From the IMG/VR virus record IMGVR_UViG_2713896785_000023: a stretch of 26,308 bases of DNA, one strand, 5' to 3'. This DNA is from a virus. Taxonomy: Duplodnaviria > Heunggongvirae > Uroviricota > Caudoviricetes. Each line of letters opens with the position of its first letter. Position 1 is the first letter of the stretch. Positions 20,448 to 20,766 of this stretch are shown here, piece by piece. The position numbers and the translations under genes are program-made. A model generated the notes under the pieces. That model was not told where the DNA came from. It was given only the letters and a program-made list of their open reading frames with translations, and made no database searches.

Positions 20448-20566
20448 CGGCAAAATATTTCAAAATGTTGTACAGAATCAGGACGTTACCGGGACAACAA
20501 TATGTACGTAAAATGCACATAATTCCTTGCGTGAAAAAATAAATCGTTCATATTCAATAAACTATG

Positions 20567-20606
20567 TGAATTCCGATCACGGGTTCAACTCCCGCCAGCT
20601 CCACCA
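20567..20606 (+). repeat. Prophage attachment core = 3' end of ssrA (tmRNA), partial copy
   Basis: 20581-20606 GGGTTCAACTCCCGCCAGCTCCACCA matches the 3' terminus of E. coli ssrA as I recall it; upstream similarity decays into phage sequence, so this is the att repeat and not a complete tmRNA gene. Confidence 0.7.
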
Positions 20607-20735
20607 ATCATGATTGGACGGTATAAGGACAACACCAATAAAAACAGGAAGTTAGCAGTCTCAGCAGGACACCGACCAGACGGTGAAGAGACATAAAAGG
20701 ATACGCAAAGGAGCCGCGGCTCCTGGTGACATGAA

Positions 20736-20758
20736 AGCCCACAGATGTGGGCTTTTTC
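20736..20758 (+). terminator. Intrinsic terminator hairpin between att core and autotransporter 3' end
   Basis: AGCCCACA-GAT-TGTGGGCT followed by TTTTT. Confidence 0.5.
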
Positions 20759-20766
20759 GTTGATGG

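Follow-up and report, generated by a model that had tools for sequence, protein, structure and literature searches.

Introduction

The window analysed here, 26,308 nucleotides of the Caudoviricetes record IMGVR_UViG_2713896785_000023, contains a short piece of the tmRNA gene, ssrA, downstream of a phage integrase gene and next to DNA of chromosomal character. The locus raises the question whether this piece marks the site at which an Stx1 prophage is integrated in the E. coli chromosome, and where the DNA on either side of it came from.

The att core in the window

The last 27 nucleotides of E. coli ssrA, comprising T-stem, T-loop, 3' acceptor strand and CCA, were found as an exact repeat (CGGGTTCAACTCCCGCCAGCTCCACCA) at positions 20580-20606 of the window, on the + strand. 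This att core is matched exactly by the ssrA of the same genome lineage, by strains with an empty site and by phage LMessi. The preliminary description had recognised 26 bp at 20581-20606 as the 3' end of the tmRNA gene; the identity of the segment was right, but its length is 27 bp. The core had also been placed 120 bp 3' of int, whereas the distance measured from the int stop at 20447 is 132 nt. The DNA in between (20448-20579, +) is the phage-derived P arm of attR: it is absent from the empty site, and it is collinear with the DNA between int and core in two comparators, the free phage LMessi and the Stx2e prophage of strain cq9.

The 27-mer is present as a single copy in the window even with up to three mismatches allowed, and none was expected according to 100 shuffles. 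The notion that the match arose by chance and has no relation to ssrA, for which nothing but the short length of the match speaks, had practically no probability left, given that no shuffle produced a match even with three mismatches and that the logic of the junctions is exact; it can be regarded as already refuted. ARAGORN found no tmRNA gene in the window, and the Rfam tmRNA model gave a partial match only, at 20567-20606, which scored 15.1 bits where the gathering score is 47. Both results are as expected for a fragment of 27 nt, and the sub-threshold match is the displaced 3' fragment of ssrA and no gene.

Upstream of the core, similarity to ssrA amounts to 8 identical positions of the 12 adjoining the core and 14 of 30, after which it falls to background; these values were reached by 60 and 81 of 20,000 shuffles, respectively. 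The upstream decay of similarity reported earlier is real, but it is slight and statistically marginal. Extended similarity is stronger on the 3' side of the core, where the flank and the phage arm of the other prophage end are identical at 59 of 110 positions (z about 6).

The other prophage end and the empty site

As the window includes the right end of the prophage only, the left end was inspected in a near-identical relative, NZ_CP027544.1. This is the closest complete genome, of strain 2013C-3264 with serotype O103:H25 (PMC7285328), and it matches window positions 2611-26308 save for a 1-nt homopolymer indel, a difference in a C-run at about 7189 inside Q. Positions 1-2610 are structurally different between the two: there are eight mismatches in 1-1842, and within 1843-2610 about 600 nt between a DUF6645 gene and stxB have no counterpart in the relative. 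NZ_CP027544.1 was rejected as the source of the window because of these extra nucleotides, the mismatches and the indel in Q, and no complete genome identical to the whole window was found in the collection searched.

In NZ_CP027544.1, ARAGORN located an intact ssrA at 1627347-1627709 (tag ANDENYALAA), identical in sequence to the ssrA of the empty-site strain and ending in the same 27-mer. The layout is smpB, ssrA, tail-fibre genes, then stx1a and, further on, xis-int, the second 27-mer and ypjA, and the displaced ssrA fragment lies on the same strand as ssrA (+ in the window). The length of the prophage between the core copies is 47,859 bp. The expectation of the preliminary description that an intact ssrA, carrying the second copy of the core, would lie at the far end outside the window was borne out in this near-identical genome, where the gene ends that distance upstream.

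The empty-site strain 2014C-3061 equals the left part of attL (327 nt) joined to the right part of attR (1000 nt) without a mismatch, and the identity of the occupied locus with the empty site breaks exactly at both core edges. The bases immediately 5' of the core are bacterial in attL (GAATTTCGGACG) and phage-derived in attR (GAATTCCGATCA), which places the strand exchange inside the 27-bp identity. On the attL side, the ssrA-terminal 27-mer is followed by the P' arm (CTTTTGACAGGACC). The attP junction would correspond to window positions 20448-20606 joined to CTTTTGACAGG, and the restored unoccupied junction would read ssrA-ATCATGATTGG. Such an attP exists as contiguous DNA in LMessi, with int, a 132-nt spacer, the identical core, the P' arm and convergent tail-fibre genes, and the P arm of the window and the P' arm of attL align to it as one contiguous attP.

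The Islander features of the element were found: an intact ssrA at one end (in the nearest relative), a 3' fragment in the same orientation, a tyrosine integrase inside, and an empty allele. At the sequence level, these features make up the complete signature by which PMC4383910 defines integration into a tDNA. A phage-type ssrA end in Okinawa bovine strains, considered on account of BLAST matches starting 12 nt earlier, was rejected; the ssrA of these strains is standard, and the longer matches are an effect of BLAST extension.

Gene content of the prophage

Between the two cores lie genes for tail fibres, tail, head, terminase and lysis, stx1a B and A, Q, replication, immunity and early-left genes, xis and int. 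The interval in NZ_CP027544.1 includes one integrase gene, and it is a single coherent lambdoid stx1a prophage. The genes stxB1a and stxA1a are situated at 2939-4165 (-) of the window, as annotated by RefSeq in the near-identical record with coordinates shifted by 1, and they lie downstream of Q (6878-7225, -) in the late direction of the same prophage. The earlier view that this Stx1 phage occupies ssrA and not yehV agrees with these results: an stx1a prophage lies between the ssrA copies, and the empty site matches exactly.

Another arrangement was also considered, in which the 27-mer would stem from an older element or from the chromosome, the Stx1 prophage would lie elsewhere, and int and core would adjoin by coincidence or as the result of a tandem array. 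Tandem arrays do exist at ssrA (in cq9, GCA_000261385.1 and GCA_001950775.1 a further island follows, with a P4-type integrase of its own), and in K-12 a degenerate ssrA fragment is present at the end of CP4-57. Such an arrangement is nevertheless very improbable here, because the stretch from ssrA to the fragment in the nearest genome has a lone integrase and a single, coherent lambdoid gene order, the occupied locus ceases to match the empty site exactly at the two core edges, and the P and P' arms are contiguous in the free phage LMessi.

A cassette of 2.1 kb was observed at 4740-6847 (+), between Q and stxA1 and on the opposite strand, with genes for products of 350, 130 and 221 aa. The matches of the three genes are confined to PHROGs of unknown function (12777, 11490 and 9664), and the cassette gave no Pfam match and no credible PADLOC match. 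The same three-gene cassette adjoins Q also in the Stx2e prophage of the pig strain cq9. Late transcription from Q to stx1 would have to pass through this cassette in antisense.

Integrase, excisionase and candidate arm sites

The excisionase gene xis (19111-19320, +) encodes a product of 69 aa and overlaps the start of int. It was identified by phrog_2917 (E = 2e-40), and its product had no match in Pfam. The integrase gene int (19275-20447, +) is transcribed towards the core and encodes a tyrosine integrase of 390 aa with the Pfam domains Arm-DNA-bind_2, SAM-like and Phage_integrase; the protein also matches the structures of Tn1549 Int and lambda Int. By its domain composition Int is a heterobivalent tyrosine integrase, with an arm-binding N-terminal domain followed by core-binding and catalytic domains, and with Xis adjoining. 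Its amino acid identity to the Int of LMessi is 88%, and CP4-57 IntA gave a local match only (30% over 80 aa).

An Int with 88% amino acid identity to that of the window occurs also in phiES15; at the nucleotide level, identity to the int of the window is about 80-83% for phi467 and PhiR12 (PhiR12_1). The nucleotide matches of these three phages end just before the 3' end of int, and no ssrA-like core was found 3' of int in the stretches fetched from them, for which reason they were rejected as comparators for attP. In these phages, similarity of Int alone appears to be no predictor of the integration site. Perhaps few changes suffice to switch the site specificity of this integrase clade, or else these phages have their attP in another part of the record.

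A repeat search on the reconstructed attP detected a direct repeat of 34 nt on the P and P' arms (GACAAnAATATrnACGyAAAATGCAC). One copy lies at 20493-20526 (+) in the P arm and the second at the far end of the prophage, within the P' arm, and LMessi has the repeat in conserved form. A profile built from phage P' arms also matched the P arm at 20472-20520 (E = 8e-5). Pairs of GAC and ACG motifs with a spacing of 11 bp are conserved on the arms across genera. The 34-nt repeat is a candidate arm-type Int site on each arm, a role suggested by the repetition, and the paired motifs are further candidate arm-type sites. The segment ATAAAAACAGnnAnTTA may be a site for a bending protein (IHF). Within the core, CGGG-TTCAACT-CCCG was the only short-spacer inverted repeat found by reading the sequence.

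Integration mechanism

What was observed directly are two core copies, precise junctions, an empty site, the Int and Xis domains and, in a related free phage, an attP in one piece, and with these the segment 20448-20766 is almost certainly the attR of a lambdoid Stx1a prophage of about 48 kb, integrated site-specifically at the 3' end of ssrA. The attP of the phage would lie between int and the tail-fibre genes and include 27 bp that repeat the 3' end of ssrA. Int would exchange strands somewhere within the 27-bp identity, with Xis serving the reverse reaction. The T-loop is a known sublocation of crossover in tDNA. The likeliest overlap here would be the 7-nt T-loop TTCAACT, with the inverted CGGG/CCCG of the T-stem as core-type sites; a crossover in the T-loop is suggested by the symmetry of the sequence.

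Integration would regenerate ssrA unchanged at attL, where the gene would gain a trailer and a terminator supplied by the phage; the P' arm of the phage carries a terminator hairpin 3' of ssrA, folding at -21.7 kcal/mol. The original end of ssrA would be displaced about 48 kb downstream to adjoin int, and this would be the copy found in the window. Like that of lambda, int is transcribed in the direction of the core, and it is consequently located at the ssrA-distal end of the prophage, opposite to the arrangement of CP4-57.

The state of the prophage today is a separate matter. In NZ_CP027544.1, RefSeq flags as frameshifted or interrupted the genes for portal (internal stop), capsid/protease fusion and tape measure, as well as Q, and the junction could accordingly be a true att scar of a prophage that is now defective and immobile, its int/att module being a relic. 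This is unlikely in view of Int and Xis, which are intact open reading frames with full-length domain matches, of both att cores, which are perfect, and of the exact Int protein, which occurs in 477 blocks of public assemblies. Furthermore, Q is intact in the window, where its product of 115 aa covers positions 1-113 of the 118 of Phage_antitermQ and the frameshift of the RefSeq call is absent, so that at least one 'frameshift' of the record is a homopolymer difference. The RefSeq flags may be assembly errors, and the prophage may be mobile at present.

Comparison with related elements

Like the published Stx1 and Stx1a phages at ssrA of non-O157 STEC, the element is an Stx1 lambdoid prophage at the tmRNA gene, a site alternative to the yehV/mlrA of O157. 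In comparison to the ssrA Stx1 phages of O111 strains (PMC2323221), to which it was likened from their descriptions, the right junction is here resolved to the base.

LMessi (PP925823.1) resembles the phage of the window in having the identical core 132 nt after int, collinear arms and tail-fibre genes that converge on attP. It differs in being a free phage record of 37 kb with no stx among the inspected features, and in its arms, which are only about 80-85% identical to those of the window phage. Also the bases just 5' of its core (TTCGGAC) match ssrA better than those of the window phage.

The K-12 element CP4-57, with IntA and psaA, is inserted at the same point of the chromosome, with ssrA on one side and the same trailer and ypjA flank on the other. 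Its integrase, however, is of the unrelated P4 type, adjoins ssrA and reads away from it, whereas the Int of the window lies at the opposite end. The repeat of CP4-57 is much shorter: the K-12 fragment (CCGCCAGC-CCACCA) has a 1-nt deletion and is annotated as the 14-bp psaA, while the repeat of the window is a perfect 27 bp and includes the T-loop. CP4-57 carries no stx. As far as their sequences tell, the Stx1 prophage and CP4-57 are different systems that have a common site.

The likeness to lambda lies in xis-int directed towards attP, in the heterobivalent Int, and in the repeats present on both arms around a short core. The arm-binding domain belongs to another family here (PF12167), and the target is not an intergenic attB such as that between gal and bio but the 3' end of a tDNA, which the phage must regenerate. 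Moreover, the arm and IHF sites of the window phage are candidates.

The Stx2e prophage at ssrA in pig strains (cq9, NZ_CP031546.1) has an int-P arm-core module 98.6% identical to that of the window and a common early region. It differs in carrying stx2e with tRNA genes and a methyltransferase, in its lysis and late region, and in being followed at the same core by a P4-like satellite in tandem and not directly by ypjA. In the tandem array of cq9 (locus positions 22539-23949), the int and core are succeeded by the P4-like island with its own integrase and by a CP4-57-type trailer. A similar order, with int and core, an island with a P4-type integrase and a CP4-57-type trailer, was seen in the draft assemblies GCA_000261385.1 and GCA_001950775.1 (locus positions 11306-12779).

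Prevalence and previous reports

Of the 5426 complete E. coli genomes, 25 contained the int-P arm-core module with at least 95% nucleotide identity, in every case on the chromosome, and about 17 further genomes contained relatives at roughly 80%. The uninterrupted junction of ssrA and trailer was present in 2569 of the same 5426 genomes, from which it follows that about half of them are occupied by something.

The gene ssrA was reported as a new site for Stx phages in O111 strains in 2007 by Ogura et al., who did not identify the right junction in these strains (PMC2323221). It is listed among the Stx sites in a review (PMC8065619), it is one of the three known sites of Stx1a phages together with wrbA and yehV (PMC10132054; also PMC10982417), and Stx2f phages are described as typically using it (PMC11597368). 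The classical Stx1a phage of O157, Sp15, is located at mlrA, which is the same as yehV (PMC8112680). The finding that ssrA serves as an insertion site of an Stx1a phage is thus correct and already known. The integration as such brings no new biology, since it is already established that elements integrate into tDNAs, that ssrA is a hot spot and that Stx1a phages use it. The junction fixes the site and the boundaries of the prophage (47.9 kb, 27-bp core), which is of use in prophage typing, PCR assays of the site and outbreak genomics of non-O157 STEC.

The chromosomal flank

On the 3' side of the core, the flank consists of the trailer, a hairpin with a T-run, ypjA/EhaD, a pinH remnant and ypjCB. 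The preliminary description had taken this flank, from its autotransporter and invertase remnant, for the ssrA/CP4-57 neighbourhood, and the comparison with K-12 ssrA-ypjA supports this: ypjA, pinH and ypjCB are arranged as they are distal to CP4-57, and the same DNA follows the attR of CP4-57.

The autotransporter gene ypjA/EhaD (20767-24151, -), identified from the RefSeq annotation of the near-identical record and the Pfam Autotransporter beta-domain, is a pseudogene with an internal deletion. It is split into open reading frames of 108 and 1009 aa, and its length falls about 1.2-1.3 kb short of that in K-12 and other strains. Counted from the core, the initial 1000 nt, which extend into ypjA, are base-identical in 2014C-3061, and ypjA is annotated as an incomplete pseudogene also in this strain. 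As the site is empty there, the damage to ypjA is unrelated to the prophage. The remnant of a pinH-type DNA invertase gene (24430-24597, -) is annotated as a partial recombinase and corresponds to pinH in the same place in K-12; its nucleotide identity to the DNA invertase genes of P2-like phages is about 80%.

In CP056697.1 (locus positions 11333-12108), the int and core of the present type are followed by the trailer and then straight by glaH (csiD). This genome lacks the block ypjA-pinH-ypjBC-ileY-ygaQ 3' of the trailer, and the block is thus itself variable. The retention of the trailer in a strain without ypjA-ygaQ indicates that the trailer is tied to ssrA and not to that block.

Origin of the ssrA trailer

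In unoccupied E. coli, ssrA is followed by a chromosomal trailer, which in the window occupies 20607-20732 (+), and by a hairpin with a T-run (20733-20760, +; fold -16.7 kcal/mol, z = -4.8), likely to be the ssrA terminator in these strains. In the alignment, this hairpin falls where phage P' arms have their terminators. A simple terminator scan called neither the hairpin of the trailer nor that of the P' arm, but folding shows both to be strong.

The trailer was found to be homologous to phage P' arms with both nhmmer and alignment. The nhmmer profile, constructed from phage P' arms only and with the core removed, matched the window in register at 20610-20707 (E = 8.8e-11), and also the empty site, the K-12 trailer and the E. 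albertii trailer (E = 7e-10) were matched by it. The E. coli trailer is 54% (59/110) identical to the P' arm of this phage and 73% identical to that of another subtype. It is fixed, being present in all E. coli, and it is present also in E. albertii.

The 27-mer end of ssrA was exact in at least 120 species representatives of Enterobacterales, Vibrionaceae and Pasteurellaceae. The ssrA trailers of 120 representatives fell into a few sequence families, each of them occurring in distant genera and each with a terminator-like hairpin and T-run shortly 3' of the core, as if most elements brought their own ssrA terminator. The family of the P' arm included LMessi, Pseudocitrobacter, Atlantibacter, Enterobacter soli, Xenorhabdus and Arsenophonus, and among these loci tblastx found tail-fibre homologues downstream only in Xenorhabdus, Arsenophonus and Pseudocitrobacter. 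The paired repeats spaced by 11 bp are near perfect in the phage arms of distant genera (TGCACGTGAAATGCACGTG, GATACGCAAAAGATACGCGG); in E. coli they have decayed (GATACGCAAAGGAGCCGCGG), and E. albertii has lost them by deletion. The E. coli-type trailer was found in none of the other Enterobacterales ssrA genes sampled, which have trailers of different families.

Homology alone allows two directions of descent. Positions 20607-20760 are probably a fossil P' arm, terminator included, left by an ancient prophage whose att belonged to the same family. Conversely, a phage lineage could have captured host DNA 3' of ssrA, in which case the trailer would not be a fossil arm. This second origin, which is the less probable of the two although it deserves serious consideration, would suit the fixation of the trailer in E. 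coli and its presence in E. albertii, its persistence in a strain without the ypjA-ygaQ block, and the circumstance, following from the model of PMC4383910, that the attP of the phage must have obtained its tDNA segment from a host once. It does not readily explain why the arm family adjoins ssrA in the distant Xenorhabdus, Arsenophonus, Atlantibacter, Pseudocitrobacter and Enterobacter, with tail-fibre homologues in three of them, why the repeats are near perfect in the arms but decayed or deleted in the two Escherichia trailers, or why the other sampled Enterobacterales ssrA genes are without the E. coli-type trailer. A fossil arm fits the evidence better than capture of host DNA. The proposal that pinH and ypjA are further leftovers of the prophage that left the fossil arm was found to be unsupported, as the trailer persists without ypjA-ygaQ and pinH resembles the invertases of P2-like phages.

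If the trailer is a fossil arm, the attR of the window, consisting of a true P arm, the core and a fossil P' arm, would be a pseudo-attP, and the ssrA of E. coli would owe its termination to domesticated phage DNA. The point is a small one in evolutionary terms, but it would mean that the 'unoccupied' ssrA site of Escherichia had been occupied before, and it suggests that the approximately half of E. coli genomes that appear 'empty' at ssrA may still bear the scar that supplies their ssrA terminator.
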